A stretch of 64,000 bases of DNA, taken from assembly GCF_003918875.1 (NCBI RefSeq), contig NW_025766975.1, forward strand, positions 994,684 to 1,058,683. Direction: 5' to 3'. Shown piece by piece: positions 2,771 to 61,654 of the stretch; position 1 is the stretch's first letter; each line of letters starts with the position of its first letter. Under the pieces are notes generated by a model. It was given only the letters and a program-made list of their open reading frames with translations. It was not told the origin of the DNA and did not search any database. Origin of the DNA: Haliotis rubra (lineage: Eukaryota). The position numbers and the translations under genes are program-made.

Positions 2771-3762
2771 AAATAAATAATAATAATAATGGACATTTGT
2801 TATGCGCTATAATCCACACACTAGTGCATGCTCAAAGCGAAGGGGGAAGAGGGAGGGAGTCAGTTATATACAGGGGAGAAAAGGTAAGTCTTAAGTCGTG
2901 ATTTGAAAGCTGTCATAAAATCAGAGTCTTTGATGTGGACTGGCAGTGAATTCCATAGTCTTGGGGCTGCATGAAAGAACGATCGTTTACCAAATGGGGA
3001 AAGTCGAAAAGTTGGTACAGTAAGTAGGAGCTGGTTCTGAGATCGAAGAGTTCTGGCTGGTGTGTATACAGCGATCAAGTCAGTGAGATAGGATGGGGCC
3101 TGGTTGTGGAGGCATTTGTAGACAGTACAGAGAACTTTAAAGTTGATACGTGATTCGATTGGGAGCCAATGAAGTGATTTGAGAACTGGAGTAATGCGAC
3201 ATGATTTTGACTGTAACGAAATGATGCGGGCGGCCGTATTCTTTACTTTCTGCAGCCTTTTATGCTGAGCCCTGTTAAGACCTACAAGCAGCCCGTTGCA
3301 ATAATCTAATCTGGAGGAAATTAGACATCTGACTAGAATCTTCGTGCTTTCTTCTGTGATGTACTTCCGGATGTTCCCAATCCTGCGCAAATGGAAATAG
3401 CAGGTTTTATAAAGTCTGTCGATATGTACATCCATGGCGAGATCCGACTCTAGCCATACGCCAAGATCCTTCACCAGAGGAGAAAAGGCAACCTGTGAGG
3501 AACCTATTGTTATACTATCACTTGTGATAATCTTCAATTGTTGTGATCTGCCAATAGGTAATACTTCAGTTTTATCATCATTCAGTCTTAAAACTCTACT
3601 TGTCATCCATGTTTTTATCTGGGTTGTGCAGTTTTCAATGTTCTTGAAAGTAGCTGCTTCTGTATCTGTATCTGGTATACAGGAGGAAGAGGACAGGTCC
3701 CATAACGGAGCCTTGAGGGACACCACACGATAGAATGGATTTCTTGGAGAGATTATCAGCAA
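2771..3762 (-). mobile_element. 5'-truncated non-LTR retrotransposon (LINE) 3' fragment: RT C-terminal region plus (ATT)n tail
   Basis: 300-aa ORF with RT C-terminal motifs (LRLNDDKTE..., SRLDYCNGLLVG, AARII, ITPVLKSLHWLP, SRINFK, RSFFHAAPRLWNSLP, FKSRLKTYLF); minus-strand 3' end at (ATT)n 2771-2790. Confidence 0.8.
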
Positions 3763-6234: not shown

Positions 6235-6362
6235 TTGTGGACTGGACTCCCACACAACAAGCCGTGTGTGACAGGACTCCCACACAACAAGCCGTGTGTG
6301 ATAGGACTCACACACAACAAGCCATGTGTGATAGGACTCACACACAACAAGCCGTGTGTGAA
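6235..6362. repeat. 30-bp tandem repeat x about 4.3
   Basis: GACTCCCACACAACAAGCCGTGTGTGACAG repeated; causes overlapping repetitive pseudo-ORFs on both strands. Confidence 0.85.
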
Positions 6363-10264: not shown

Positions 10265-10345
10265 GTGATCGTAGCGCTACGACTGTCGTAAGTCTATGTT
10301 AAAGTATGGGAGTTACGATCACCTTAGCACTACGATCGCTTTGTG
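10265..10345. repeat. short dispersed palindromic repeat (second copy 45113-45190)
   Basis: GTGATCGTAGCGCTACGACTGTCGTAAG...CACCTTAGCACTACGATCGCTTTGTG present twice in window; MITE-like. Confidence 0.5.
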
Positions 10346-10419
10346 AAATGGGGCTCTGCTTGGTAAGCCATGCTTCTAGCAATGACTATCAGAACCAATG
10401 GTGGAGTGGATGCAGCACT

Positions 10420-10545
10420 TCAAGCAGATGTCTGCCTATCTTGTTCCCTGCCTACAAGACCACCTGCTGTGTTGAACAGGTTGAGGGGATTCTTGGCATC
10501 AGTGAACAACACGCTCTGCATCCCGAGAGCCTGCAGCAAGCGGGC
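10420..10545 (-). CDS. MVP: MVP exon 25 (last coding exon, includes TGA stop at 10420-10422)
   Basis: acceptor tttgtttttcag|GCCCGC; encodes ARLLQALGMQSVLFTDAKNPLNLFNTAGGLVGREQDRQTSA*, cf. vertebrate MVP ...[32 protein letters not shown]. Confidence 0.8.
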   Translation of the reverse strand, partial: ARLLQALGMQSVLFTDAKNPLNLFNTAGGLVGREQDRQTSA

Positions 10546-10876
10546 CTGAAAAACAAAGGTAACATTGAAGTTGGTTGGCTGTCGTTTAACACCGCTGAAT
10601 GCAGTGTAAAACTAAACTCACTCACTCATTCGGCTGGAAACCATAGATCTACGAGTTGTTTTAGAAACCGGGAATCTATATTGCTCAGGAATGATCGATT
10701 TTTGTATTTTTCTGGTCACTGATCTTGACCTTGTTAATCTGGATGCCCTGCTCACATGATCAAAATATCGAGCTAAAGAGTCATGAGCTCAGTAAAGTAT
10801 TCACCCACATGAAACTGTTGCTGATGCTACAGAGACAAAAGATCCTATTTGCAAGGATTAACAATTTGTTTGTCTT

Positions 10877-12544: not shown

Positions 12545-13818
12545 TACTTACCAGGCAAGTACTACCCAAATAGTTACCATGATTTGTGGCAATCAAGAAT
12601 CAATATTTAGCATGTTATGTGACAGTCAGGTACCTATATTTACCATGCTCTGTGAAATGCTCAGTGACAGTATAACATCACAGTTAGCATGTTCTGTGAC
12701 AGTCAGGTACCTATATTTACCATGCTCTGTGAAATGCCCAGTGACAGTATAACATCACAGTTAGCATGTTATGTGATGGTCAGGTACCTATATTTACCAT
12801 GCTCTGTGAAATGCTCAGTGACAGTATAACATCACAGTTAGCATGTTCTGTGACAGTCAGGTACCTATATTTACCATGCTCTGTGAAATGCTCAGTGACA
12901 GTATAACATCACAGTTAGCATGTTATGTGACAGTCAGGTACCTATATTTACCATGCTCTGTGAAATGCTCAGTGACAGTATAACATCACAGTTAGCATGT
13001 TCTGTGACAGTCAGGTACCTATATTTACCATGCTCTGTGAAATGCCCAGTGACAGTATAACATCACAGTTAGCATGTTATGTGATGGTCAGGTACCTATA
13101 TTTACCATGCTCTGTGAAATGCTCAGTGACAGTATAACATCACAGTTAGCATGTTCTGTGACAGTCAGGTACCTATATTTACCATGCTCTGTGAAATGCT
13201 CAGTGACAGTATAACATCACAGTTAGCATGTTATGTGACAGTCAGGTACCTATATTTACCATGCTCTGTGAAATGCTCAGTGACAGTATAACATCACAGT
13301 TAGCATGTTATGTGACAGTCAGGTACCTATATTTACCATGCTCTGTGAAATGCTCAGTGACAGTATAACATCACAGTTAGCATGTTATGTGACAGTCAGG
13401 TACCTATATTTACCATGCTCTGTGAAATGCTCAGTGACAGTATAACATCACAGTTAGCATGTTCTGTGACAGTCAGGTACCTATATTTACCATGCTCTGT
13501 GAAATGCTCAGTGACAGTATAACATCACAGTTAGCATGTTATGTGACAGTCAGGTACCTATATTTACCATGCTCTGTGAAATGCTCAGTGACAGTATAAC
13601 ATCACAGTTAGCATGTTCTGTGACAGTCAGGTACCTATATTTACCATGCTCTGTGAAATGCTCAGTGACAGTATAACATCACAGTTAGCATGTTATGTGA
13701 CAGTCAGGTACCTATATTTACCATGCTCTGTGAAATGCTCAGTGACAGTATAACATCACTGTGATGGTCAGTCATCAATAGTAGCCATGTTTTGTGACAG
13801 TTAAGTATCTATATTTAC
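12545..13818. repeat. Satellite D: 77-bp unit x about 16, abutting the donor of MVP exon 22
   Basis: period 77 measured (12681 to 12758); minus-strand unit ...CAGAGCATG|GTAAATATAGGTACCTGACTGTCAC... matches exon 22 end ...CAGGGCATG|GTAAATATAGATACTTAACTGTCAC. Confidence 0.85.
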
Positions 13819-13883
13819 CATGCCCTGTGTCTCCAGTCTAGCTTGATGTTCTATTGCCTCTGCCTCTGCCTTCAGTTTTGCAG
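13819..13883 (-). CDS. MVP: MVP exon 22 (cap-helix)
   Basis: gggttttttccag|CTGCAAAACTG ... GGCATG|gtaaat; encodes (A)AKLKAEAEAIEHQARLETQGM (cf. LQAKLKAQALAIETEAELQRVQK). Confidence 0.75.
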
Positions 13884-14074
13884 CTGGAAAAAACCCACAA
13901 ATTGCAAGAAAGAATGATATGCATAAGGTCAGTGCCCGCTTCAGTCCTCCTCTCCTAATTGTAAGTCATTTATCATTCAAGTCCTCATTCATTCTATGGA
14001 AACCTCAAAACTAAGCCATAGGATTCTGAACACAGCAGAAATCTGATATGAGGGAAATGTTCACTGAGCACTGC

Positions 14075-17000
14075 CCTGAATGACTGTTTGACCAGAAAAC
14101 TTTCTTCCATAAAAATCCATCTGTATCACACACAGCTCACCTTCAATCTCACTCTGACACTCTATAAGCATCCTCTCTGCCTGGGCCTCTATCACACACA
14201 GCTCACCTTCAATCTCACTCTGACACTCTATAAGTATCCTCTCAGCCTGGGCCTGCATCACAGCTCACCTTCAATCTCACTCTGACACTCTATAAGCATC
14301 CTCTCTGCCTGGGCCTGCATCACAACTCACCTTCAATCTCACTCTGACGCTCTATAAGCATCCTCTCAGCCTGGGCCTGTATCACACACAACTCACCTTC
14401 AATCTCACTCTGACACTCTATAAGCATCCTCTCAGCCTGGGCCTGCATCACAGCTCACCTTCAATCTCACTCTGACGCTCTATAAGCATCCTCTCAGCCT
14501 GGGCCTGTATCACACACAACTCACCTTCAATCTCACTCTGGCACTCTATAAGCATCCTCTCAGCCTGGGCCTGTATCACACACAGCTCACCTTCAATCTC
14601 ACTCTGACGCTCTATAAGCATCCTCTCAGCCTGGGCCTGTATCACACACAACTCACCTTCAATCTCACTCTGACGCTCTATAAGCATCCTCTCAGCCTGG
14701 GCCTGTATCACAGCTCACCTTCAATCTCACTCTGACGCTCTATAAGTATCCTCTCAGCCTGGGCCTGCATCACAACTCACCTTCAATCTCACTCTGACGC
14801 TCTATAAGCATCCTCTCAGCCTGGGCCTGCATCACAGCTCACCTTCAATCTCACTCTGATGCTCTATAAGCATCCTCTCAGCCTGGGCCTGTATCGCACA
14901 CAGCTCACCTTCAATCTCACTCTGACGCTCTATAAGCATCCTCTCAGCCTGGGCCTGCATCACAGCTCACCTTCAATCTCACTCTGACACTCTATAAGCA
15001 TCCTCTCAGCCTGGGCCTGTATCACACACAGCTCACCTTTCAATCTCACTCTGGCTCTATATAAGCATCCTCTCAGCCTGGGCCTGCATCACAACTCACC
15101 TCTTCAATCTCACTCTGACACTCTATAAGCATCCTCTCAGCCTGGGCCTGTATCACACACACAACTCACCTTCAATCTCACTCTGCCAGCTCTATAAGTA
15201 TCCTCTCAGCCTGGGCCTGTATCACACACAGCTCACCTTCAATCTCACTCTGACACTCTATAAGTATCCTCTCAGCCTGGGCCTCTATCACACACAGCTC
15301 ACCTTCAATCTCACTCTGACACTCTATAAGTATCCTCTCAGCCTGGGCCTGTATCACACACAGCTCACCTTCAATCTCACTCTGACACTCTATAAGTATC
15401 CTCTCAGCCTGGGCCTCTATCACACACAGCTCACCTTCAATCTCACTCTGACACTCTATAAGTATCCTCTCAGCCTGGGCCTCCTATCACACACAGCTCA
15501 CCTTCAATCTCACTCTGACACTCTATAAGTATCCTCTCAGCCTGGGCCTGTATCACACACAGCTCACCTTCAATCTCACTCTGACACTCTATAAGTATCC
15601 TCTCAGCCTGGGCCTGTATCACACACAGCTCACCTTCAATCTCACTCTGACACTCTATAAGCATCCTCTCAGCCTGGGCCTGCATCACAACTCACCTTCA
15701 ATCTCTCACTCTGACACTCTATAAGCATCCCTCTCAGCCTGGGCCTGTATCACACACAACTCACCTTCAATCTCACTCTGACGCTCTATCAGTATCCTCT
15801 CAGCCTGGGCCTGTATCACACACAGCTCACCTTCAATCTCTCACTCTGACACTCTATAAGTATCCTCTCAGCCTGGGCCTGTATCACACACAGCTCACCT
15901 TCAATCTCACTCTGACACTCTATAAGCATCCTCTCAGCCTGGGCCTGTATCACACACAGCTCACCTTCAATCTCACTCTGACACTCTATAAGTATCCTCT
16001 CAGCCTGGGCCTGTATCACACACAGCTCACCTTCAATCTCACTCTGACACTCTATAAGCATCCTCTCAGCCTGGGCCTCTATCACACACAGCTCACCTTC
16101 CAATCTCACTCTGACACTCTATAAGCATCCTCTCAGCCTGGGCCTCAGCTATCACACACAGCTCACCTTCAATCTCACTCCTGACACTCCTATAGGTATC
16201 CTCTCAGCCTGGGCCTGTATCACACACAGCTCACCTTCAATCCCACTCTGGCACTCTATAAACATCCTCTCAGCCTGGGCCTGTATCACAGCTCACCTTC
16301 AATCTCACTCTGACGCTCTATAAGCATCCTCTCAGCCTGGGCCTGCATCACAACTCACCTTCAATCTCACTCTGACGCTCTATAAGCATCCTCTCAGCCT
16401 GGGCCTGTATCACAGCTCACCTTCAATCTCACTCTGACACTCTATAAGCATCCTCTCTGCCTGGGCCTCTATCACACACAGCTCACCTTCAATCTCACTC
16501 TGGCTGCATCCTCTATAAAGTATCCTCTCAGCCTGGGCCTGTATCACACACAGCTCACCTTCAATCTCACTCTGACACTCTCACACAAGCATCCTCTCTG
16601 CCTGGGCCCTCCTATCACATAATGTCAGCTCACCTTCAATCTCACTCTGACCTCTGTAAGCATCCTCTCTGCCTGGGCCTCTATCACACACGTCTCACCT
16701 TTCAATCTCACTCTGACCTCTATAAGTATCCTCTCAGCCTGGGCCTGTATCACACACAGCCTCACCTTCAATCCTCACTCTGATACTCTATAAGCATCCT
16801 CTCTGCCTGGGCCTCTATCACACACAGCTCACCTTCAATCTCCTCCTGACCTCTATAGGTATCCTCTCAGCCTGGGCCTCTATCACACACAGCTCACCTT
16901 CAATTCTCACTCTCAGCCTGGTCTGTATCCTGTGGCTCTCACTCTGACACTCTATAAGTATCCTCTCTGCCTGGGCCTGTATCACACACAGCTCACCTTC

Positions 17001-20000
17001 AATCTCACTCTGACACTCTATAAGTATCCTCTCGGCCTGGGCCTGTCACACACAGCTCACCTTCAGTCTCACTCTGACACTCTATAGACGTCCTCTCTGC
17101 CTGGGCCTCTATCACACAGCTCACCCTTCACTCTCACTCTGACACTCTCTATGGTATCCTCTCTGCCTGGGCTCTGTATCACACACAGCTCACCTTCAAT
17201 CTCACTCTGACACTCTCTATAGTATCCTCAGCCTGGGCCTGTGTCACAGCTCACCTTCAATCTCACTCTGACACTCCTTATAAGCATCCATCTCTGCCTG
17301 GGCCTCTATCACAGCTCACCTTCATACCATTTTCTCTGACCACTCTGCAATGTCCTCCTCTCAGCCTGAGCCTGTATCACTGGCTCACCTTCCAATCTCA
17401 CTCTGTCCTCTATAAGCATCCCTCTCTGCCTGGGCCTGCATCTAACTCACCTTCCAATCTCACTCTGACGCTCTATAAGCATCCTCTCAGCCTGGGCCTG
17501 TATCCAAAACTCACCTTCAATCTCACTCCTGACACTCTATAAGCATCCTCTCAGCCTGGGCCTGCATCACAGCTCACCTTCAATCTCACTCTGACTCTCT
17601 ATAAAGCATCCTCTCAGCCTGGGCCTGTATCACAGCTCACCTTCAATCTCACTCTGACACTCTATAAGCATCCTCTCTGCCTGGGCCTCTATCACACACA
17701 GCTCACCTTCAATCTCACTCTGGCACTCTATAAGTATCCTCTCAGCCTGGGCCTGTATCACACACAGCTCACCTTCAATGTCACTCTGACACTCTATAAG
17801 TATCCTCTCAGCCTGGGCCTGTATCACACACAGCTCACCTTCAATCTCACTCTGACACTCTATAAGCATCCTCTCAGCCTGGGACTGCATCACAACTCAC
17901 CTTCAATCACTCTGACAATCTATAAAAGCATCCTCTCAGCCTGGGCCTGTATCACAGCTCACCTTCAATCTCACTCTGACACTCTATAGAAGCATCCTCT
18001 CTGCCTGGGCCTCTATCACAGCTCACCTCCAATCTCACTCTGGCTCTATAAGTATGTCCTCTCTGCCTGGGCCTGTATCACAGCTCACCTTCAATCTCAC
18101 TCTGACACTCTATAAGCATCCTCTCTGCCTGGGCCTCTATCACACACAGCTCACCTTCAATCTCACTCTGACACTCTATAAGTATCCTCTCAGCCTGGGC
18201 CTGTATCACAGCTCACCTTCAATCTCACTCTGACTCTCTATAAGTATCCTCTCAGCCTGGGCCTGCATCACAACTCACCTTCAATCTCACTCTGACACTC
18301 TATAAGCATCCTTTCAGCCTGGGACTGCATCACAACTCACCTTCAATCTCTCACTCTCATGACACAGCTCTATAAGCATCCTCTCAGCCTGGGACTGCAT
18401 CACAGCTCACCTTCAATCCTCACTCTGACACTCTATAAGCATCCCTCTCACCTGGGCCTGTATGTCACACAGCTCACCTTCAATCTCACTCTGACACTCA
18501 ATAAGCATCCCCTCAGCCTGGGCCTGTATCACACACAACTCACCTTCAATCCCTCTCTAGGCTCTATAAGGATCCTCTCAGCCTGGGCCTGTATCACACA
18601 GCTCACCTTCAATCCCACTCTGACTCTATAAGCATCCTGGGCCTGGGCCTGTATCACACACAGCTCACCACCTTCAATCTCACTCTGACACTCTATAAGC
18701 ATCCTCTCAGCCTGGGCCTGTATCACACACAGCTCAGCTTCAATCTCCTCTCTGGCTCTATAAGCATCCTCTCAGCCTGGGCCTGTATCACAACTCACCT
18801 TCAATCTCACTCTGACACTCTATAAGCATCCTCTCAGCCTGGGCCTGTATCACAGCTCACCTTCAATCTCACTCTGACGCTCTATAAGCATCCTCTCAGC
18901 CTGGGCCTGTATCACAACTCACCTTCAATCTCACTCTGGCACTCTATAAGCATCCTCTCACCCTGGGCCTGTATCACACACAGCTCACCTTCAATCTCAC
19001 TCTGACACTCAATAAGCATCCCCTCAGCCTGGGCCTGTATCACACACAACTCACCTTCAATCCCACTCTGACACTCTATAAGGATCCTCTCAGCCTGGGC
19101 CTGTATCACACACAGCTCACCTTCAATCCCACTCTGACACTCTATAAGCATCCCCTCAGCCTGGGCCTGTATCACACACAACTCACCTTCAATCCACTCT
19201 GACACTCTATAAGCATCCTCTCAGCCTGGGCCTGTATCACACACAGCTCACCTTCAATCTCACTCTGACGCTCTATAAACATCCTCTCAGCCTGGGCCTG
19301 TATCACAGCTCACCTTCAATCTCACTCTGACGCTCTATAAGTATCCTCTCAGCCTGGGCCTGTATCACACACAGCCTCACAGCTCACCTTCACATCTCAC
19401 TCTGACTCTCTATAAGCATCCTCTCAGCCTGGGCCTGTATCACACACAACTCACCTTCAATCTCACTCTGGCACTCTATAAGTATCCTCTCAGCTGGGCC
19501 TGTGTCACACAACTCACCTTCAATCTCACTCTGACACTCTATAAGTATCCTCTCAGCCTGGGCCTGTATCACACACAGCTCACCTTCAATCTCACTCTGA
19601 CACTCTATCAGCATCCTCTCAGCCTGGGCCTGTGTCACACAGCTCACCTTCCATCCACTGACTGGCTCTATAAGCATCCTCTCAGCCTGGGCCTGTATCA
19701 CACACAGCTTACCTTCAATCTCACTCTGGCAGTCTATAAGTATCCTCTCAGCCTGGGCCTCTATCACCACACAGCTCACCTTCAATCTCACTCCTGGCAC
19801 TCTATAAGCATCCTCTCGGCCCTGGGCCTGTGTCACACACAACTCACCTTCAATCTCGCTCTGGCACTCTATAAGGTATCCTCTCAGCCTGGGCCTCCCT
19901 ATCACACACGCTCTTCACCGTCTCACTCTGACACTCTATAAGTATCCTCTCGGCCTGGGCCTGTATCACACACAGCTCACCTTCAATCTCACTCTGACAC

Positions 20001-20420
20001 TCTATAAGTATCCTCTCAGCCTGGGCCTGTATCACACAGCTCACCTTCAATCTCACTCTGACACTCTAAGCATCCTCTCAGCCTGGGCCTGTATCACACA
20101 CACAAGCTCACCTTCAATCTCACTCCTGGCGCTCTATAAGCATCCTCTCAGCCTGGGCCTGTATCACACACAGCTCACCTTCAATCTCACTCTGACACTC
20201 TATAAACATCCTCTCAGCCTGGGCCTGTATCACAGCTCACCTTCAATCCCACTCTGACACTCTATAAACATCCTCTCAGCCTGGGCCTGTATCACAGCTC
20301 ACCTTCAATCTCACTCTGACACTCTATAAGCATCCTCTCAGCCTGGGCCTGTATCACACACAGCTCACCTTCAATCTCACTCTGGCACTCTATAAGCATC
20401 CTCTCAGCCTGGGCCTGTGC
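14075..20420. repeat. Satellite C: 62/66-bp unit x about 95-100 (~6.3 kb), starting at the donor of MVP exon 21
   Basis: period 66 measured (14131 to 14197); 62-bp variants lack CACA; minus-strand unit ATACAGGCCCAGGCTGAGAGGATGCTTATAGAGTGTCAGAGTGAGATTGAAG|GTGAGCTGTGTGTG = last 47 nt of exon 21 + consensus donor + 19 nt intron; in-frame (22 aa QAQAERMLIECQSEIEGELCVI); degenerate or frameshifted in 16100-17600 and 19390-19900. Confidence 0.9.
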
Positions 20421-20595
20421 TTCAGCTTTGGCTTGCCCAGTTGACTCAACAGCTGCAGCTATAGCACACAGATGCAGCAAGTTGGCCCTCTCCTTCTCTG
20501 CATCCTTCTCATTGGCCAGCTTCTGTCTCTCCAGCTGACCGCGTGCAGCCTGCTCAATCTTGTCAGCCTCATGGGCTGCTGCATTCTCTATGGAC
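20369..20595 (-). CDS. MVP: MVP exon 21 (shoulder/cap-helix start)
   Basis: tactgtacag|GTCCATAGAG ... GATTGAAG|gtgagc; encodes (K)SIENAAAHEADKIEQAARGQLERQKLANEKDAEKERANLLHLCAIAAAVESTGQAKAEAQAQAERMLIECQSEIE (cf. ...[61 protein letters not shown]). Confidence 0.8.
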
Positions 20596-20784
20596 CTGTA
20601 CAGTATTTATGAGGGAATTAGCCGTCATGACTTGCTACTCACTAGTGGTGGGAATTGGTTAAAGTTTCAAGACTAATCATGGTTTAACAAAAGGACTGTT
20701 GATGGTTTAATGAATAATCATAATTGAGAACACAGAAATACAAAGAAATGCAGAGCTGTAATTCTGCATTTGTCCTTAAAAATG

Positions 20785-22880
20785 TAATTTTTGGAGTAAA
20801 ATTGATATTTTATACTTATCCTGACTCATGCTCTTTTTGCTTGTCTTCTTCTTCTTGCGAACATAGTGGAACACTTGTATCTCCCTAATTGAAGCTCCCT
20901 TCAATTTAAAATCACTAATTAGTATTCACCACGAGTTACCTCCTTTCCACAAGCGCGGGAACGAGGGCGCCACCTCTACCCATGTGCCTCACTCTCTCCT
21001 CATATACTGAGCCCAACATTTGAATTTACAGGAAATCCAAAGTGTTATTTGGGGAGGATGGGAGGGGCTGACCTCATGAGTCAGGATAAGTATAAAATAT
21101 CAATTTTACTCCAAAATTACATATTTTCCTTATCCTGACTCATGCTCTTGCTTGTAGCATCCTACGGACGGAGGTGGGAATATCTAATACTTTGGATTTT
21201 TAATAATTAGTGATTTGAACTGTGATGATTGTAATAACCCTATGGGAACTTCATAAAGGCACTGAACTGATGAATTCCTGCTGCTAACTTATCAGCTGCC
21301 ATATATGTTAAAAGGTTATTACCATGTACTTATTATGATAAAGTATATATAACATTAATACAATGCTTAAGACTAATAGACTTAAGCTTGTTAATATGCT
21401 AGTATAAACTCCTTAGAGTTTGTTAGCTAAAATACTTTAAGATATAACATAGTACTAAGCTTAAGATATGATTAAACTTAAGCTAATTATATAATAGCAA
21501 ACTCTTTAGAGTTTGTTAGCTAATCTACTTATATGATATAGATATAGTGCTGAGCTTAAGATATGAATAAGCTTTAGCTACCTATATATATAATAGCAAA
21601 ACTCTGTAGAGTTTGTTAGCTAATATATTTTTATAATATGAGTATAGTACTATGCTTAAGGTATAATTAGCTTAAGTTACCTATATAATAGTAAAACTCC
21701 GTAGAGTTTGTTAGCTTAATTAACTTAAGCTATGTATAAAATAGCCAAAAACTCTGTAGAGTTTGTTAGCTAATGCATTTATCATGTAACCATAGTATTA
21801 CTCTTAAGATATGAATAACTTAAGGTAAATATATATAATAACAAACTCTGTAGAGTTGTTAACTTATATATTGTATGATGTAATAATCATAGTACTGTGA
21901 TGATAAAAGGAACTTAAGTAAATTATATATAGCATGAAGCTATTTAGTATTGTTATAAGATAAGTAAAAATCTGTTAGATTGACTTATCTTCTAAGAGGA
22001 ACTGTCAGCTGTTGTGCGAGGACCATGGGATCGAATTGGTGTATACCTGAGACGTCCTCCTGGTGGTGATATCTCTCAGATAATGGTTTGCAACCACCAT
22101 ATCGATTTCCAGAAATAAACCCTCCATTATTTCAATCACATTTGTGTAGAACAATTGTAGAAGTTAGCGCTATAATATCATGAGTATTAAGCTCATGGAG
22201 GGTCGGAATAGGTCCATCCGCATATGCACGTAGTATGACAGTTCTGATCCAAATGGAGATATAGTACATGAGACTTCACTCTGCGTAAGTTGATGATAGA
22301 GGAAATAATCTGTTGCATTTTTCCTCCTGTTTGGTTTGGTGGAGATAAATTTACAGTGCTCTTGCTGGCCATCTTGATAGAATCATCGTGATCATGGGGT
22401 CCAAGTATGTCATCCAGGCGGTTGTTCATAAACCCGGATCAGCAGCAGCATAAAAACGCAATCTGTAATAGTACAGAATTTTCATCAACGAATCCACTGA
22501 AACAAACACGCGCCCCGTGAATAAACTGTAGAAAAAAACGAATTAAATATCAATATATAATCGCTTGAAGGATACTAGCTAAACCTCTATAGATGTCTAT
22601 ACGAGGTAACTAACTAAATATAATTCAAAGGATATAGTGTGTCGGAGACACAGGCGCTTCTCACGTCCAGCTCACTGGGCGAAGAAGGAGAGAGTGAGGC
22701 ACATGGGTAGAGGTGGCGCCCTCGTTCCCGCGCTTGTGGAAAGGAGGTAACTCGTGGTGAATACTAATTAGTGATTTTAAATTGAAGGGAGCTTCAATTA
22801 GGGAGATACAAGTGTTCCACTATGTTCGCAAGAAGAAGAAGACAAGCAAAAAGAGCATGAGTCAGGATAAGGAAAAATTA
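20785..22880. mobile_element. TE1: ~2.1-kb non-autonomous foldback-like DNA element with ~230-bp terminal inverted repeats
   Basis: 20812-21040 is the reverse complement of 22660-22880 (CTTATCCTGACTCATGCTCTTTTTGCTTGTC...GGCGCCACCTCTACCCATGTGCCTCACTCTCTCC); subterminal hairpin CATGAGTCAGGATAAG...CTTATCCTGACTCATG; internal ~60-bp tandem array 21340-21900; shared with TE2. Confidence 0.75.
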
Positions 22881-41119: not shown

Positions 41120-41261
41120 CTGGGTGTAGGAAAAATGTACACAACCCTTTCTTCAGCACCCGCTTCCCAAGGCATGGCCTCTTGTCCTCGTCTACTGGGT
41201 CCAGGACAACACAGTACTGACCCTTGCTGACCACCTCCTTCTTCACCTGCTTGACAACCTC
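41120..41261 (-). CDS. MVP: MVP exon 9
   Basis: cctgctgcag|GAGGTT ... CACCCAG|gtaaac; encodes EVVKQVKKEVVSKGQYCVVLDPVDEDKRPCLGKRVLKKGLCTFFLHP (cf. [48 protein letters not shown]). Confidence 0.85.
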
Positions 41262-41519: not shown

Positions 41520-42440
41520 CAATACCTACATGCAAAGCATCTACACCAACATCATGTATCTTCACTACCTACACCATCAACATCGACATTGTTAAAAACA
41601 CTTACATCAACATCATGGGCATCAACATCAACATCTGTCAGGCAACATCAACTTTATTTATACTTACACGAACATTATCTACACCAACAGCATTGTCTGT
41701 ACCCATACTGTCTTCACCAACAGCAATGACGGCACCCACACTGTCTACACCAACAGCATCTACACCTACATCATCTATATCAACAGCATTGACGGCACCT
41801 ACACCAACAGCATCTACACCTACATCATCTATATCAACGGCAATGACGGCACCTACACCAACAGCATCTACACCTACATCATCTATATCAACAGCAATGA
41901 CTGCACCCACACTGCCTTCACCAACAGCAATGACGGCACCTACACTGTCTAGACCAACATCATCTACACCTACATCATCTATATCAACAGCAATGACTGC
42001 TACCACAGTGGTAAAAAATATCAATGAATATTGGGTCAACACCATTATCATCTACAGCAACAGCATTGACTGCACCCAGATTGTCTACATCAACAGCATC
42101 AACAGCTTCCACATCTACACCAACTGCACTGACTGCACCCACACTTTCTTCACCAACTGCATCTACACCTACATCACCAATATCAACCGCACTGACTGGG
42201 CACACACTGTATCAACAGCACCTACACCTACATTAACTACACCAACAAAATTGTCTACAACAGCAGCATCTACATCTTCATCATCTACACCAACAGCATT
42301 GACTGAACCCAAATTGTCCACAACAACAGCATCCACATGTACATCAACAACAGTGAATGCATCAACATTGTCTACAACAGCATCTACATCAACTTCAGTA
42401 ACATTATTTAAAACTTTACATTCTCTACAGGTATAATCAC
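41520..42440. repeat. 54-bp CA-rich minisatellite (intron 8)
   Basis: period 54 measured (ACGGCACCTA at 41801 and 41855); unit ACACCAACAGCATCTACACCTACATCATCTATATCAACAGCAATGACGGCACCT; produces a spurious 324-aa Thr/Pro/Ser-rich ORF on +. Confidence 0.8.
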
Positions 42441-43274: not shown

Positions 43275-43341
43275 CACTCCAACTTCAGGAAAATAACTAT
43301 CAGTTTCTTCTCCAGTCAGCAGCCATTCTTCTCCAGCCAAC
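43275..43341 (-). CDS. MVP: MVP exon 8
   Basis: ttgttgcag|GTTGGC ... GGAGTG|gtaagt; encodes (R)LAGEEWLLTGEETDSYFPEVGV (cf. [24 protein letters not shown]). Confidence 0.85.
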
Positions 43342-46730: not shown

Positions 46731-46822
46731 TTTCCTTCGTTATCATAACAGTCCTGAATGGCCCGTAGATTGAGGGAATCTCCATTCCTGATGATGAACG
46801 GCTGCACAATCTTCACAACCTC
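46731..46822 (-). CDS. MVP: MVP exon 5
   Basis: tcctacag|GAGGTT ... GGAAA|gtaagg; encodes EVVKIVQPFIIRNGDSLNLRAIQDCYDNEG (cf. [30 protein letters not shown]). Confidence 0.85.
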
Positions 46823-47024
46823 CTGTAGGATGACAACAATCATAACAATTACTGATCAGGTTTACTGAACATGATACTTGATGACATATATGAAAGTATG
46901 TGAAATCAAATAATTAATATATAATAACATCACACTTTGGGTGTATGAACTGGTCAGTACTAACAGCTATCTGCTTCAATTACCTTAACAATTAGGACAA
47001 AATCTAATGATGTTTCAGTCTTCT

Positions 47025-49665
47025 CACCATTGCAGCTCTAGAAATGTGGTCTACTCGCCACATCAGCTCTAGCAATGTGGTCTACTCGCCACATCAGCTC
47101 TAGGAATGTGGCCTACTCAACACATCAGCTCTAGGAATGTAGGTTACTCAACACATAAGCTCTAGGAATGTAGGCAACTCGCCACATCAGCTCTAGGAAT
47201 GTGGTGTACTCAACAGCTCAGCTCTAGGAATTTGGTCTACTTGCCACATCAGCTCTAGGAATGTGGTCTCTCGCCACATCAGCTCAACACATAGGCTCTA
47301 GGAATGTGGTCTACTCGCCACATCAGCTCTAGGAATGTGGTCTACTCAACATATCAGCTCTAGGAATGTGGTCTACTCAACACATAGGCTCTAGGAATGT
47401 GGTCTACTCAACACATCAGCTCTAGGAATGTGGCCACATCAGCTCTAGGAATGTGGTCTACTCAACATATCAGCTCTAGGAATGTGGTCTACTCACCACA
47501 TCGGCTCTAGGAATGTGGTCTACTCAACACATCAGCTCTAGGGATGTAGCTTAGTCACCACATCAGCTCTAGGGATGTAGCCTACTCAGCTCTAGGAATG
47601 TAGGTTACTCACAACATCAGCTCTAGGAATGTGGCCTACTCACCACATCAGCTCTAGGGATGTAGGCTACTCACATCAGCTCTAGTAATGTGGGTTACTC
47701 ACCACATCAGCTCCAGGAATGTAGGCTACTCACCACATCATCTCTAGGAATGTAGGCTACTCACCACATTAGCTCCAGTGATGTAGGCTACTCACCACAT
47801 CATATCTCTAGGAATGTGGGTTACTCACCACATCAGCTCTAGGAATGTGGGTTACTCACCACATCAGCTGTAGGGATGTAGGTTACTCACCACGTCAGCT
47901 CTAGGAATGCAGGCTACTCACCACATCAGCTCTAGGCATGTAGGCTACTCACCACATCAGCTCTAGGGATGTAGGCTACTCACCACATCAGCTCTAGGAA
48001 TGTGGGTTACTCACCACATCAGCTCTAGGAATGTGGGTTACTCACCACATCAGCTCCAGGAATGTAGGCTACTCGACACATCAGCTGTAGGTATGAAGGT
48101 TACTCACCACATCAGCTCTAGGAATGTAGGCTACTCACCCACATCAGTTCTAGGAATGTAGGCTACTCACCACATCAGCTCTAGGAATGTGGGTTACTCA
48201 CCACATCAGCTGTAGGGATGTAGGTTACTCACCACATCAGCTCTAGGAATGCAGGCTACTCACCACATCATCTCTAGGCATGTAGGCTACTCACCACATC
48301 AGCTCTAGGGATGTAGGCTACTCACCACATCAGCTCTAGGAATTTGGGTTACTCACCACATCAGCTCTAGGAATGTGGGTTACTCACCACATCAGCTCCA
48401 GGAATGTAGGCTACTCGACACATCAGCTGTAGGGATGAAGGTTACTCACCACATCAGCTCTAGGGATGTAGGCTACTCACCACATCAGCTCTAGGAATGT
48501 AGGCTACTCACCACATCAGTTCTAGGAATGTGGTTTACTCACCACATCAGCTCTAGGAATGTGGTTTACTCACCACATCAGCTCTAGGAATGTGGGTTAC
48601 TCAACACATCAGCTCTAGGAATGTAGGCTACTCACCACATCAGCTCTAGGAATGTGGGTTACTCACCACATCAGCTCTAGGAATGTAGGCTACTCACCAC
48701 ATCAGTTCTAGGAATGTAGGCTAATCACCACATCAGCTCTAGGAATGTAGCCTACTCACCACATCAGCTCCAGGCTACTCACCACATCAGCTAGGAATGT
48801 AGGCTACTCATCACATCAGCTCTAGGAATGTAGGCTACTCACCACATCAGCTCTAGGAATGTAGGCTACTCACCACATCAGCTCTAGGGATGTAGGCTAC
48901 TCAACACATCAGCTCTAGGAATGTAGGCTACTCACCACATCAGCTCTAGGAATGTAGGCTACTCACTACGTCAGGTCTAGGAATGTGGGTTTCTCACCAC
49001 ATCATCTCTAGGAATGTAGGCTACTCACCACATCAGCTCTAGGAATGTAGCCTACTCACCACATCAGCTCTAGAAATGTAGGCTACTCATCACATCAGCT
49101 CTAGGAATGTAGGCTACTCACCACATCAGCTCTAGGAATGTAGGCTACTCACCACATCAGCTCTAGGGATGTAGGCTACTCACCACATCAGCTCTAGGAA
49201 TGTAGGCTACTCACCACATCAGCTCTAGGAATGTAGGCTACTCACCACATCAGCTCTAGGGATGTAGGCTACTCACCACATCAGCTCTAGGGATGTAGGC
49301 TACTCACCACATCAGCTCTAGGAATGCAGGCTACTCACCACATCAGCTCTAGGGATGCAGGCTACTCCCCACATCAGCTCTAGGTATGTAGGCTACTCAC
49401 CACATCAGCTCTAGGAATGTGGGTTTCTCACGTCAGCTCTAGGGATGTAGGCTACTCACCACATCAGCTGTAAGGATGTAGGCTACTCACCACGTCAGCT
49501 CTAGGGATGTAGCCTACTCAACACATCAGTTCTAGGAATGTAGCCTACCCCAATCAGCTCTAGGAATGTAGGCTCATCACCACGTCAGCTCTAGGGATGT
49601 AGGCTCATCACCACATCAGCTCTAGGGATGTAGGCTACTCACCACATCAGCTCTAGGGATGTAGG
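47025..49665. repeat. Satellite B: 31-bp unit x about 85 (~2.6 kb), starting at the donor of MVP exon 4
   Basis: period 31 measured (48841 to 48872); minus-strand unit CCTACATYCCTAGAGCTGATGTG|GTGAGTAG = last 23 nt of exon 4 (..YIPRADV) + GTGAGTAG donor. Confidence 0.9.
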
Positions 49666-49867
49666 TCAGTGGTCCAGGCAGCTGCCACATCTCCTCTTCC
49701 TTCCTCTTCACCCCAGAGTCCTCCAGGTCAAAGAGGGCACGGAGGCGGATTGCATGGTTGGCATTGATAACAGGGAGGGGACGGACAGCCTTCTGGTACT
49801 GACCTCTCTGCTGGACGTATTCTGGGGCCAGCGTGAGTGATTCTCCTGGGTAGAGAGGGAATGGGTC
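49643..49867 (-). CDS. MVP: MVP exon 4 (vault repeat)
   Basis: ttcttccttgcag|GACCCA ... GATGTG|gtgagtag; encodes [75 protein letters not shown] (cf. [63 protein letters not shown]). Confidence 0.9.
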
Positions 49868-50803: not shown

Positions 50804-50867
50804 CTGATGAAGTCTTACTTCCTTGTGTCCAAGTTTGAGCTCACATGCCTTGCCTGCCTCATAGTGG
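50804..50867 (-). CDS. MVP: MVP exon 3
   Basis: gtttctcttctag|CCACTAT ... CATCAG|gtaggt; encodes (S)HYEAGKACELKLGHKEVRLHQ (cf. [29 protein letters not shown]). Confidence 0.75.
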
Positions 50868-51040: not shown

Positions 51041-53265
51041 CACCTGTTAGGTGACCGAGATGACCTCACCTCATGGGGTCTGTGATGATGTTATGGTGAC
51101 CGAGATGACCTCACCTCATGGGGTCTGTGATGATGTTATGGTGACCAAGACTACCTCACCTGATGGGGTCTGTGATGGTGTTATGGTGACTGAGATTACC
51201 TCACCTGATGGGGTCTGTGATGGTGTTATCGTGGCTGAGATGACCTCACCTGATGGGGTCTGTGACACTGTTATCGTGACTGAGATGACCTCACCTGATT
51301 GGGTCTGTGATGCTGTTATGTTGACCGAGATGACCTCACCTGATGGGGTCTGTGATGCTGTTATGGTGACCGAGATGACCTCACCTGATGGGGTCTGTGA
51401 TGGTGTTATGGTGACCGAGATTACCTCACCTGATGGGGTCTGTGATGCTGTTAGGGTGACCGAGATGACCTCACCTCATGGGGTCTGTGATGCTGTTATC
51501 GTGACTGAGATGACCTCACCTGATGGGGTCTGTGATGTGTAATCATGACCGAGATGACCTCACCTGATGGGGTCTGTGACGGTGTTATCGTGACTGAGAT
51601 GACCTCACCTGATGGGGTCTGTGATGCTGTTATGGTGACCGAGATGACCTCACCTGATGGGGTCTGTGATGCTGTTGAAGTGACTGAGATGACCTCACCT
51701 GATGGGGTCTGTGATGCTGTTATTGTGACTGAGATGACCTCACCTGATGGGGTCTGTGATGCTGATGAAGTGATCTGAGATGACCTCACCTGATGGGGTC
51801 TGTGATGCTATTATAGTGACTGAGATGACCTCATCTGATGGGGTCTGTGTGATGCTGTTATCGTGGACCAAGATTACCCTCACCTGATGGGGTCTGTGAT
51901 GCTGTACCTATCGGACTGAGATGACCTCACCTGATGGGGTCTGTGATGTATTATCATGACTGAGATGACCTCACCTGATGGGGTCTGTGATGCTATTATG
52001 ATCGTGACTGACCTCACCTGATGGGGTCTGTGATGCTGTTATGGTGACTGAGATGACCTCACCTGATGGGGTCTGTGACACTGATGAAGTGATCAAGATG
52101 ACCTCACCTGATGGGGTCTGTGATGATGTTATGGTGACCGAGATGACCTCACCTGATGGGGTCTGTGATGATGTTATGGTGACTGAGATGACCTCACCTG
52201 ATGGGGTCTGTAATGCTGTTATCATGACCAAGATGACCTCACCTGATGGGGTCTGTGATGCTGTTATGGTGACTGAGATGACCTCACCTGATGGGGTCTG
52301 TGATGCTGTTATCGTGACTGAGATGACCTCACCTGATGGGGTCTGTGATGCTGTTATCGTGACCAAGATGACCTCACCTGATGGGGTCTGTGATGCTGTT
52401 ATCATGACCAAGATGACCTCACCTGATGGGGTCTGTAATGCTGTTATCGTGACTGAGATGACCTCACCTCATGGGGTCTGTAATGCTGGTGACTACCTTA
52501 TGCTATTATGGTGACTGAGATGACCTCACCTGATGGGGTCTGTGATGCTGTTATCGTGACCGAGATGACCTCACCTGATGGGGTCTGTGATGCTATTATG
52601 GTGACTGAGATGACCTCACCTCATGGGGTCTGTGATGCTGTTATCGTGACCAAGATGACCTCACCTGATGGGGTCTGTGATGCTGTTATGGTGACTGAGA
52701 TGACCTCACCTGATGGGGTCTGTGATGATGTTATGGTGACCGAGATGACCTCACCTGATGGGGTCTGTGATGATGTTATGGTGACCGAGATTACCTCACC
52801 TGATGGGGTCTGTGATGCTATTATGGTGACCGAGATTACCTCACATGATGGGGTCTGTGATGGTGTTATGGTGACCGAGATGACCTCACCTGATGGGGTC
52901 TGTGATGCTGTTATCGTGACTGAGATGACCTCACCTGATGGGGTCTGTGATGATGTTATGGTGACCGAGATGACCTCACCTGATGGGGTCTGTGATGATG
53001 TTATGGTGACCGAGATTACCTCACCTGATGGGGTCTGTGATGCTGTTATGGTGACCGAGATGACCTCACCTGATGGGGTCTGTGATGATGTTATGGTGAC
53101 CGAGATGACCTCACCTGATGGGGTCTGTGATGATGTTATGGTGACCGAGATTACCTCACCTGATGGGGTCTGTGATGCTATTATGGTGACCGAGATTACC
53201 TCACATGATGGGGTCTGTGATGCTGTTATCGTGACCAAGATGACCTCACCTGATGGGGTCTGTGA
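51041..53265. repeat. Satellite A: 45-bp unit x about 49 (~2.2 kb), starting at the donor of MVP exon 2
   Basis: period 45 measured (52741 to 52786); minus-strand unit TCACAGACCCCATCAG|GTGAGGTCATCTCGGTCACCATAACAKCA = last 16 nt of exon 2 (..VTDPI) + CAG|GTGAGG donor + 29 nt intron; irregular segment 51780-52040. Confidence 0.9.
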
Positions 53266-53383
53266 CACTGATGTAGTGACCAGGAGGGACAACGATCATA
53301 GGTAAAGGTCCAGCCTCAAGACGTTCATTACTCTTCAGGACGAGGGTCTGTGGCCCGACCTCTAGCCGTGTGATGTTCGTTGT
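53250..53383 (-). CDS. MVP: MVP exon 2
   Basis: cctgtgttgcag|ACAACG ... CCCATCAG|gtgagg; encodes TTNITRLEVGPQTLVLKSNERLEAGPLPMIVVPPGHYISVTDPI (cf. [44 protein letters not shown]). Confidence 0.85.
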
Positions 53384-56877: not shown

Positions 56878-57800
56878 ATGCACCCCCAAACCTGGTTGAA
56901 ACATTCACATTATAACGTCAGCAGGATGCCCCTTCTCACGACAGCTCAGGGGAACAAGGCGCAAAGAAGACTTGAAGCTGGCCTCACTGCACAAACCGTT
57001 GCCAATCACTTCCAGGTCAACGTTTGGACCATCTACAGGCTGCAGCAACGTTTCCGGGCCACCAACACCACAAATGATTCCCCCCGTACTGGCAGACCAA
57101 GGGTGACCACAAGACGACAAGACCGCCATGTTGTGCGACAGCAAGTACAGAATCTCTTCATGCAGGCATCCGAAACAGCACGCCAGACAGTGGGAACACA
57201 CGGAAGACCAATCAGTACTGATACAGTACGACGACGTCATAACAGCGGGAACCTCCATTGCCGTAGACCTTACCGTGGACCTATCCTCATCCCTCGTCAT
57301 CGGCGTGAACGTCTGCAGTTTGCCCTACAACACGAAAACTGGCGACACAGGCAATAGTGAACTGTTCTGTTCAAAGATGAGAGTCGGTACTGCGTATCAA
57401 GTGCAGATGGCAGAACAAGAATATGGCGACGACGTGGCCAGCGTCACTCAGACCAATGTGTTATGGAAAGAGACTCATGGGGAGGTGCAAGCATCAATGT
57501 ACTTGAAGGGGCTGGCAATATAATACCGACATTATCAGGAGTAGTACAAGCACCGCACGCACCGTGTGGCTTTTTTCAGTTTAGGAAAGCAATGTGCCAC
57601 AGATGCCTTAGACGGAACGCGCCTTGCAGAGTTGCGTCCCTTAGCCTCTTACGTCGGATTCGCAGAACCGCCACGGAACCATCCCTTTACCGAAACATCA
57701 AGGCTTTCATGCAGAAACACCAAAGCTTACTACATGATTACCGCCAGCACAGCTGCAGACCTTTAAACCGGTCACTATTCAGACCTTTCCAAGCGTGTTA
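56878..57800 (+). mobile_element. degenerate Tc1/mariner-family transposase remnant (frameshifted)
   Basis: 159-aa ORF with paired-like HTH ...RTGRPRVTTRRQDRHVVRQ...GRPISTDTVRRRHNSGNLHCRRPYRGPILIPRHRRERLQFALQHENW; downstream frames continue catalytic-domain-like segments (RVGTAYQVQMAEQEYGDDV..., WGGASINVLEGAGNIIP...) across frameshifts. Confidence 0.7.
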
Positions 57801-60644: not shown

Positions 60645-60888
60645 CCCGTGAATGTCCGGGTTAGAATTCTTCTTCAGCAACTCATGCTTGTCGTAAGAGG
60701 CGACTAACGGGTCAGGCTCGCTGATTGGGTTGACACATGTCATCGTATCCTAATTGCGCAGATCGATGTCCATGCTGTTGATCCCTGGATTGACTGGTTC
60801 AGACACGATTATTTACAGACCGCCACCATATAGCTGGAATATTGCTGAGTGCGGCGTAAAACTAAACTCACTCACTCACTCGCTACGT
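60645..60888 (+). mobile_element. SINE-B copy
   Basis: CCCGTGAATGTCCGGGTTAGAATTCTTCTTCAGCAACTCATGCTTGTCGTAAGAGGCGACTAACGGGTCAGGCTCGCTGATTGGG...GGAATATTGCTGAGTGCGGCGTAAAACTAAACTCACTCACTCACTCGC. Confidence 0.75.
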
Positions 60889-61249
60889 ATGACTGTCTAT
60901 ATGATGTGTGGCGCTATCTCGTACTACGACCTTCACATCGAGATTTTACTGTTTATTCTCTGGCCAGCATTTATTTACTGTTATGAAATCTGTGTGAGTA
61001 TTGGATGCAAACTTACCGTATTTGCAAACATCAGGTGCCAGCACTGATTTTCAGGGACTTGTTGTATTTTCAAACATGTATAACTCGTCCACAAATAGAC
61101 TTTAGTACATGGATTTTTACATCAGTTTAGGAGAAGGAAATGTCTATACAACCAAGTGGATAATGTTAGATAACAGAGAAGTTGAGCGCCATGGTGACGA
61201 CGTAGCGCGGGCCCGACGTCAGGTCTCCTGGCTCTCAGTCCAATCTCTC

Positions 61250-61654
61250 TCAACCTGTTCCGTACAGTTTACTGGATATCCTCAGAAGTCCAGGCACACT
61301 GGCTGCTGTGCTCTCACACGTGGCAGTACGATCACGCAAATGTAGTACCCGGATGTACCGATCTTGGGCTACAGTGGTGACTCGAGGTCTGCCTGTACGG
61401 GGACGGGCATTTGTTATGCCTGTTTTGTTGTAACGAGCTGCAAGCAGTGATATCGTGCTCATACTAACATTCAGGCTCCCGGCAACGGAAGATTGGTAAT
61501 CGCCAGCGTGCATTCTTTCAATAGCGATGTTCCGTGTCGCAGCGTCAAGACGTGGCGTAGTGATTTGACCTTGAAACTTCTTCAAAACGAATGCCGATTT
61601 CCGAAAGTCATCTGCATGTTTAGACAGTGCATGCTCTTTGCTGCACAATTTCAA
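61250..61654 (-). mobile_element. Tc1/mariner transposase N-terminal fragment (second, different copy)
   Basis: ORF ...RLDAATRNIAIERMHAGDYQSSVAGSLNVSMSTISLLAARYNKTGITNARPRTGRPRVTTVAQDRYIRVLHLRDRTATCESTAA: paired-like HTH and GRPR motif; no DDE domain follows. Confidence 0.65.

Follow-up and report, generated by a model that had tools for sequence, protein, structure and literature searches.

A minisatellite of about 85 units built from the exon 4/intron 4 junction of a major vault protein gene: a probable mirage with intronic decoy donors

How does a spliceosome settle on one 5' splice site when the end of the exon, donor included, is repeated dozens of times immediately downstream? The question is raised by a 64,000-nt stretch of DNA from Haliotis rubra (contig NW_025766975.1, positions 994,684 to 1,058,683), here called the window, whose own coordinates are used for all positions given below. 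The window contains the gene for the major vault protein (MVP), which lies, as do the arrays within it, on the minus strand, so that higher numbers are upstream. Where coding exon 4 of this gene ends, a tandem array begins (47025-49665) that consists of about 85 units of 31 bp, the unit being composed of the tail of the exon and the first bases of the intron. The array is best understood as a minisatellite of the type known as "mirage": a segment of an exon-intron junction has expanded in tandem, the first copy is the working donor, the array as such is without function, and the additional donors ("decoys") are intronic. We put the probability of this interpretation at roughly 0.8.

The array was delimited with Tandem Repeats Finder (TRF), by parsing of anchored units and by matching of the unit to the exon junction. 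TRF finds the 31-bp period in two adjoining segments, 47033-47285 (8.2 copies) and 47283-49665 (77.9 copies), with 85-87% matches and an array score of 3430, which is well beyond chance; the anchored parse gives a total of 85 units. The authentic 31-mer is CCTACATCCCTAGAGCTGATGTG/GTGAGTAG (the slash marks a splice boundary here and throughout), namely 23 nt of exon tail, encoding T-YIPRADV, and 8 nt of intron. In minus-strand order one reads ...GGACCACTGA CCTACATCCCTAGAGCTGATGTG/GTGAGTAG and then, repeatedly, CCTACATYCCTAGAGCTGATGTG GTGAGTAG. Unit 1 (49665-49635) is the real tail of exon 4 with its donor and the remaining units are intronic; the unit matches the exon junction with E=5e-20 (blastn-short). 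Intron 4 runs from 49642 to 46823 (2,820 nt), and 93% of it is taken up by the array. Only about 200 nt of unique sequence remain between the array and the acceptor, this 3' part of the intron (46823-47024, from the junction scan described below) ending in ttgttgtcatcctacag/.

These features are those by which mirages are recognized. The units stand head to tail and are of minisatellite size, for which the published range is 10-160 bp; the unit holds exon and intron of a single boundary, which functions as such in the outermost copy; and the splice signal is found in many but not all copies, GTGAGT occurring 54 times, real donor included, in about 85 units. In all structural respects that can be tested on the letters, the 31-bp array is a mirage.

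That the host gene encodes MVP is evident from its domains. A tblastn search with a human MVP probe finds about 25 exons on the minus strand between approximately 54.3 kb and 10.4 kb. The conclusions depend neither on this probe nor on the donor weight matrix; they are drawn from the matches in Pfam and the PDB and from 9-mers that are exactly identical. The joined exons match the Pfam families MVP_shoulder (1.6e-45), Vault (3.8e-45) and Vault_2/3/4, all beyond the curated cut-offs, with the vault repeat domains and the shoulder domain in the order characteristic of MVP, and exons 4-9 match chains named "Major vault protein" in the PDB (E = 6.8e-62, residues 95-313). By these matches the host gene is that of MVP. 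Exon 3 was not recovered by tblastn with the MVP probe; inspection of the frame located a frame-consistent exon 3 at 50804-50867, which makes the exon at 49643-49867 the fourth coding exon. Exon 4 comprises 225 nt, encodes DPFPLYPGE...GPLTYIPRADV and ends in phase 0 at 49643, as established by translation, junction scan, Pfam and PDB. The authentic 5' splice site (49637-49645; junction scan and register of homologs) has the 9-mer GTG/GTGAGT (positions -3 to +6), its first intron base being 49642, and exon 5 (EVVKIVQPFIIRNGDSLNLRAIQDCYDNEG) occupies 46731-46822 (junction scan, PDB and register of homologs).

Which donor is joined to exon 5 was examined by a scan in which every GT or GC donor and every AG acceptor between neighbouring exon matches was scored against MVP. 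The top-scoring junction connects the donor at 49643 (GCTGATGTG/gtgagtag) with the acceptor at 46822 (tcctacag/GAGGTTGTG). The resulting peptide, GPLTYIPRADV/EVVKIVQPFIIRNG, can be aligned without a gap to GPGTYIPRKEV EVVEIIQATIIRQN of solved MVP (PDB), and the join falls exactly in register with 30 MVP coding sequences that run uninterrupted on metagenome and metatranscriptome contigs; the closest of them (L008) reads GPLTYHPKAEV/EIVTFVKPHVISHNQALRLRA. The metagenome scan for orthologous junctions covered 80 loci, of which 79 are uninterrupted coding sequence (transcripts or intronless genes); these can serve as a check of the coding register only and are uninformative on intron arrays. In three single-exon fragments that read through from exon into intron on other eukaryotic contigs, the exon ends at the same position (GPLTYxPxPxxV, then intron), which means that the position of intron 4 is conserved among other organisms. 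A query of exons 4 and 5 against a database of 5.8 billion proteins returned six fragments only, with 41-55% identity. By homology and reading frame, the first donor (49643) is thus probably the one that gives the productive MVP mRNA. The preliminary description of the window, made from the letters and their open reading frames, had already named the gene as MVP and the exon as its fourth, had derived the unit from the exon end (YIPRADV) plus donor, and had remarked that 31 is not a multiple of 3; all of this is borne out.

Exon 4 has a peculiarity of its own. At 49805-49845 it encodes a 13-residue insertion in a repeat domain relative to vertebrate MVP (LTLAPEYVQQRGQYQKAVRPLPVINANHAIRL versus EKDITPLQVVLPNTALHL), and it has WQLPGPLTY where vertebrate MVP has WLFEGPGTY. 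This type of sequence is common to the three closest metagenomic fragments (compared: P0001, P0002, P0005).

What would happen if a decoy were used instead can be read from the frame. Translation past the true donor yields ...ADV-VSSLHP-stop, the stop being reached seven codons after the exon end. The stop falls inside the first intronic unit and is therefore inherited by every downstream donor of the 31-bp array, so that the use of any decoy in this array would truncate MVP. By homology and reading frame the array would be intronic with respect to the productive mRNA, and each decoy choice within it is predictably non-productive.

The decoys are not all equal. The full 9-mer GTG/GTGAGT is present in 50 copies, that is, 49 decoys and the real site, and in seven copies all 31 nt agree with the authentic site. 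The state of the donors along the array can be mapped as Dww..DD.D.DDDDDDDD.DDdDD.DD.DwDDD.DDDDD.DDDDDDDD.D.DDDDDDDDDDD.DDcw.D.c...c.cc.c..ccd. In units 2-5 (49514-49634, from the unit parses) the donors are all disabled (GTGATG twice, a 3-nt deletion, GTTGAG), leaving a buffer of 152 nt, so that the nearest intact decoy is at 49490, +152 nt from the true donor. At the other end of the array the last 20 or so units are degenerate (47025-47635, from the unit parses; 0.87 identity to the consensus), and approximately 17 of these 20 have lost their donors, either by +1 G>T (GTGTTGAGT) or by +2 T>C (GTGGCGAGT). These are two independent GT-destroying variants, each of which has spread; the core of the array retains intact donors. 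The disabled copies beside the true donor and nearest the acceptor, the most competitive positions, fit mild selection against decoy use, and also neutral decay at the edges. Either way they are only suggestive, because the variants have spread as subfamilies and represent only a handful of independent events. Structure of the RNA was considered as a reason for the choice of donor and discarded: no fold masking the decoys was found, the exon tail with the first units and a set of eight core units folding no more stably than shuffled sequences (z = -0.76 and +0.64, respectively).

The picture of donor competition given in the preliminary description has to be modified accordingly. Its array of about 85 units of 31 bp stands, as do the immediate stop upon read-through and the truncation of MVP by all downstream copies. 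Its "about 85" GTGAGT donors come down to the 54 counted, and its notion of about 85 near-identical competitors does not hold, there being about 50 competent decoys and the most competitive positions being mutated. It recognizes neither the described class of repeat nor the three sister arrays of this gene that are presented below. Selection of the first donor agrees with the join 49643/46822. That the spliceosome "must consistently select" it is too strong, because decoy-spliced RNAs, with a premature stop upstream of many junctions, would be expected substrates of nonsense-mediated decay (NMD). To call the locus a natural case of proximal versus distal 5' splice-site choice is fair, and the rule from mammalian two-site substrates would favour the downstream sites (PMC3413131).

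The array also carries traces of how it has been renewed. At the exon-proximal edge the units have 0.92 identity to the consensus, a value that rises to 0.93-0.96 in the core and drops to 0.87 at the distal edge. A sliding-block comparison revealed two adjacent blocks of 342 nt (11 units; 48494-48153 and 48152-47811, together 47811-48494) that are 97.1% identical, which well exceeds the similarity of neighbouring units. Simple autocorrelation did not reveal this higher-order period; indels break the register. The blocks are a recent segmental duplication within the array by unequal exchange, and degenerate edges, homogeneous core and block duplication taken together point to turnover by unequal exchange, whose homogenising effect does not extend to the edges. 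Over the 75 in-register units the rate of non-consensus bases is 19% at +1 and 11% at +2, compared with 0-8% at most other positions; at the hypervariable positions -23, -21, -16 and +8 it is 27-33%. Since +1 and +2 are more variable than most of the unit, the decoy donors are not preserved beyond the rest of it.

The 31-bp array is not alone in its gene. Three further large arrays of MVP share its geometry, each unit being composed of an exon tail and that exon's own donor. The first (51044-53265) has about 49 units of 45 bp with approximately 33 nt from the tail of exon 2 (53250-53383) and 12 nt of intron (..CACAGACCCCATCAG/GTGAGGTCATCT), and contains 40 decoys identical to CAG/GTGAGG. The second (14121-20418) has about 96 units of 66 bp with 46 nt of exon tail, from the exon at 20369-20596, and 20 nt of intron (..GAGATTGAAG/GTGAGCTGTGTGTGATACAG); it contains 64 decoys identical to AAG/GTGAGC and takes up most of an intron of 6,483 nt. 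The third (12607-13830) has 15 units of 77 bp (TRF 12607-13759) and a diverged founding unit at the junction of the exon at 13820-13885; its unit has about 11 nt of exon tail and 66 nt of intron (CACAGRGCATG/GTAAATATAG), and 15 decoys are identical to the authentic site. With the 49 of the 31-bp array, the decoys that match their own authentic 9-mer add up to 168. In three of the four arrays only the first 8-20 nt of the intron are part of the unit. Arrays of all kinds together account for about 33% of the 43.8-kb MVP gene.

The 66-bp array has a property that the others lack. Its unit is divisible by 3, and the first decoy (+66 nt; 20303-20368) is in frame and free of stops, so that its use would add 22 residues (GELCVIQAQAERMLIECQSEIE-like) to the cap-helix region of MVP. 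Later decoys of this array reach stops because of indels. The +66-nt decoy is the sole one in the gene that could give a full-length variant protein.

Other organisms provide few junctions for comparison. An array is present at one of the three orthologous exon-4 junctions recovered and absent from the other two (L001, L006). The positive case, L007 (ENA ERZ23487774 scaffold_23225; fragment P0002; 47% protein identity), has at 733-862 a decayed array of about 6-8 units of 23 bp, which starts at the MVP exon end and is composed of the exon tail and donor found there: CCTGAAGTG/GTAAGT.., AACATGAAGTGGTAAGTATCA, TCAATTTGAAGTGGTATAG... This junction array is independent of that in the window but occupies the same position in the gene, at the start of the same intron. 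A 21-bp repeat in L006 was considered as a second such case and rejected, being purely intronic.

How such an array could have come about and why it is tolerated may be pictured as follows. A 31-bp segment over the exon 4/intron 4 boundary would have been duplicated in tandem, and replication slippage or unequal exchange would then have brought the number of copies to about 85. The first of these would have stayed in service as exon end and donor, the later copies being removed with the intron, and the array itself would most likely be a functionless, tolerated by-product. The first donor is probably chosen for the reason that, unlike the decoys, it belongs to a properly defined exon, with a length of 225 nt, a 3' splice site of its own and a purine-rich tract. 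This tract, GGGTGAAGAGGAAGGAAGAGGAGA (49690-49713), has 23 purines in 24 positions, precedes the true donor by 47 nt, does not occur in the units and is a candidate exonic splicing enhancer. The decoys lie in units of 31 nt, which would be too short for recognition as exons. Transcripts spliced at a decoy would meet the stop seven codons into the insert and would probably be cleared by NMD.

Several points speak against this explanation and should be thought of when judging it. It is from homology and reading frame that the first donor is concluded to be in use. Mammalian substrates predict that the downstream strong site wins, so that exon definition plus enhancer is an assumption by which the first donor is made to prevail; and the splicing rules used for comparison, which are those of mammals and amphioxus, may not be those of the host spliceosome. 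The mutational origin of mirages has been called unclear (PMC3087553), and a purely random duplication does not explain why four of seven arrays are anchored on 5' splice sites.

The last point leads to a further and rather doubtful alternative, namely that 5' splice sites may themselves seed minisatellites in this genome or that multi-donor arrays are favoured as platforms for loading of the U1 small nuclear ribonucleoprotein (U1 snRNP). Its basis is that a donor is the starting point of four of the gene's seven sizeable arrays, that three of the four units reach no further than 8-20 nt into the intron, and that a small array has arisen independently at the same MVP junction in an unrelated organism. 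The overlap of four of seven arrays with one of about 27 donors has P = 3e-5 to 1e-3 in a crude binomial test whose null places array starts uniformly over the non-array intron sequence. By a hand count, arrays are found at 3 of 8 GTGAG-type donors and at 1 of 16 others, numbers that are too small for a conclusion. The remaining arrays of the window (95-bp, 151-bp, 33/54/63-bp, 30-bp and 12-bp) match none of the exon junctions tested. Seeding could occur if the G/T-rich donor motif of the GTGGTGAG type were a hotspot of slippage or recombination, or if U1-bound nascent RNA promoted R-loops and template switching.

In its functional form, in which the arrays are U1 snRNP platforms kept by selection, the idea is distinctly unlikely. 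The benefits proposed would be a stronger definition of the upstream exon, less premature cleavage and polyadenylation, or faster removal of the intron. Decoys with the true 9-mer are certainly numerous, 49 here and 168 over four arrays of one gene, their anchoring at junctions is non-random under the crude null, and this MVP junction bears a small array in a second organism (L007) as well. Against this, GT is among the more variable rather than the most conserved positions of the unit, with donors lost at both edges of the array. Two of the three orthologous junctions do without an array and that of the third is decayed. The high identity of the units is explained by homogenisation, as exemplified by the duplication of an 11-unit block, and published mirages are unstable in length and are regarded as neutral (PMC3087553).

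Very unlikely is a regulated use of the decoys, by which an appreciable choice of downstream donors would tune MVP through unproductive splicing and NMD, or would yield a truncated N-terminal MVP fragment. The identity of decoys and true site over 9-31 nt, the mammalian preference for downstream sites (PMC3413131) and the single defined stop common to all decoy products are what such a mechanism could build on. It would call for distinct functional in-frame products or for a conserved regulatory outcome, and the 31-bp array offers neither, because its decoys share one premature stop, GT is not conserved, and the array is absent or decayed at orthologous junctions. Mutation of just those copies that are nearest the true donor and the acceptor is compatible with decay or with selection against decoy use rather than with selection in its favour; no aberrant mRNAs were seen when amphioxus mirages were examined by reverse transcription-PCR (RT-PCR) (PMC3087553, PMC3902484); and neither a conserved regulatory element nor a special RNA structure was found. 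Finally, that the array or its copy number is a mis-assembly of a short repeat is hardly credible: long minisatellites are often wrongly sized in assemblies, and in the draft genome of amphioxus Ebner et al. met a mirage whose assembly was aberrant (PMC3087553), but structured position-specific variants, distinct edge subfamilies and an 11-unit duplication are not the pattern of collapse or inflation, and four independent arrays with different units show the same geometry. The exact copy number may be wrong, which would not affect the identity of the feature.

The window, with a GC content of about 40%, has other repeats and mobile elements. Two MVP introns contain an AT-rich tandem repeat with a unit of about 95 bp (TAGAGTTTGTTAGCTAATATA...), at 21406-21931 (3 copies) and 29791-31151 (14 copies). 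The family is satellite-like and dispersed, and it bears no relation to exon junctions. A complex array with periods of 15, 33, 54 and 63 bp (TCTACACCAACAGCA...) lies at 41678-42299 in the intron between the exon end at 43275 and the exon start at 41261; it begins about 1 kb from the donor and has no match to an exon junction. Downstream of MVP a 30-bp repeat is present in 4.2 copies (6236-6361), whose minus-strand unit holds the donor-like GTGTGAGTCC; no exon was identified beside it. Upstream of MVP, the open reading frames (ORFs) at 56878-57357 (plus strand) and 61250-61654 (minus strand) are fragments of transposases of the Tc1/Tc3 type, the former with a Pfam match to HTH_Tnp_Tc3_2 above the cut-off (2.6e-10), the latter with weak helix-turn-helix matches only. 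The ORF at 2860-3762 (minus strand; 300 amino acids) has no match in Pfam; its C-terminal motif (LHWLPIESRINFKVL...APSYL...RSF..AAPRLWNSLP) we take to resemble the ORF2 tail of retrotransposons without long terminal repeats. The ORFs at 476-712, 2531-2776, 10306-10722 and 60754-61047 have a short translated motif in common (GVKPNSLTH, GIKPYSLTH, VKLNSLTHS), which suggests a dispersed short repeat resembling a short interspersed element (SINE) or a miniature inverted-repeat transposable element (MITE). An Rfam gathering scan and a tRNA scan of the entire 64 kb returned nothing.

The interest of the locus is that it is a natural many-decoy substrate on which to ask how the spliceosome commits itself to one among equivalent 5' splice sites, all but one of the examined decoy choices in this conserved, single-function gene giving a premature stop. 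Were the bias towards donors true of the whole genome, the birth of repeats and the inflation of introns could be directed by splice sites, and there would be hundreds of natural many-decoy substrates at odds with the rule that the downstream strong donor wins. Donors that seed repeats, if they exist, would also bear on the growth of introns and on the proposal that mirages yield new introns.

Several known systems can be set beside the MVP array. Tandem repeats over an exon-intron boundary were named "mirages" in the Adh3 gene of amphioxus (Canestro et al., 2002, NAR 30:2871, as cited in PMC3087553). Later examples from amphioxus concern the genes for RDH and presenilin, globin genes (BflGb6/9; Ebner et al., 2010, PMC3087553), and PGBD5 and troponin C (TnC) (Pavelitz et al., 2013, PMC3902484). 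AG/GT is retained in many, not all, of the copies, splicing was normal by RT-PCR, and the mechanism that generates the repeats was considered unclear (PMC3087553, PMC3902484). The junction repeats evolve in concert, the boundaries of the clusters being excluded (Ebner et al., PMC3087553). The MVP array resembles them in that the minisatellite units span the boundary, the outermost copy is the working one, the edges escape homogenisation and the copies are presumably spliced out. It differs in size, there being 85, about 96, about 49 and 15 copies in the four MVP arrays versus 3-6 in the globin examples, in the presence of four arrays in a single gene, and in position, all four MVP arrays being at 5' junctions whereas published mirages include 3' junctions. 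All mirages named so far are from cephalochordates; the host taxon does not belong to the structural definition.

Human genes in segmental duplications have variable internal tandem repeats at exon-intron boundaries, with 27 curated cases of about four units of approximately 30 bp (De Grassi and Ciccarelli, 2009, PMC2812944). As in MVP, units of about 30 bp overlap boundaries and are able to alter intron length and splice-site choice. The human cases are found in recently duplicated, primate-specific paralogs, often with alternative transcripts or new introns, whereas MVP is a conserved gene with huge arrays, and its coding join has stayed the same. With respect to splice-site choice the closest model is that of mammalian substrates such as C174C and Ad1CC, in which, with two strong donors at least 45 nt apart, splicing proceeds almost exclusively from the downstream one (Hodson et al., 2012, PMC3413131). 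There, too, a single acceptor is the object of competition in cis between strong donors of identical sequence, but MVP has 49 perfect decoys instead of a second site, and it is the most upstream site that is needed for productive mRNA.

In the model of Rogers, introns are gained by tandem duplication over an AG/GT proto-splice site (potato RdRp, PMC4974935; mirages are discussed in this context in PMC3087553). As in MVP, the tandem duplication carries splice signals and duplicated material becomes intronic; in MVP, however, no new intron has arisen and a pre-existing intron at a conserved position has been inflated from about 0.2 kb to 2.8 kb. In pseudoautosomal genes of the mouse, introns are filled with arrays of the 31-bp mo-2 repeat, for which unequal crossover has been invoked (bioRxiv 10.1101/2022.03.26.485930). 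These, too, are long arrays of units of about 31 bp over most of an intron, but the mo-2 unit has no relationship with the neighbouring exon and contains no copy of the junction, whereas three-quarters of the MVP unit is exon sequence, to which the donor is added. As precedents the mo-2 and the earthworm metallothionein repeats were ruled out, since they are intronic repeats that do not copy a junction. Minisatellites that span junctions have thus already been described (in 2002, 2010 and 2013), and the MVP array is a new and extreme member of this little-studied class.

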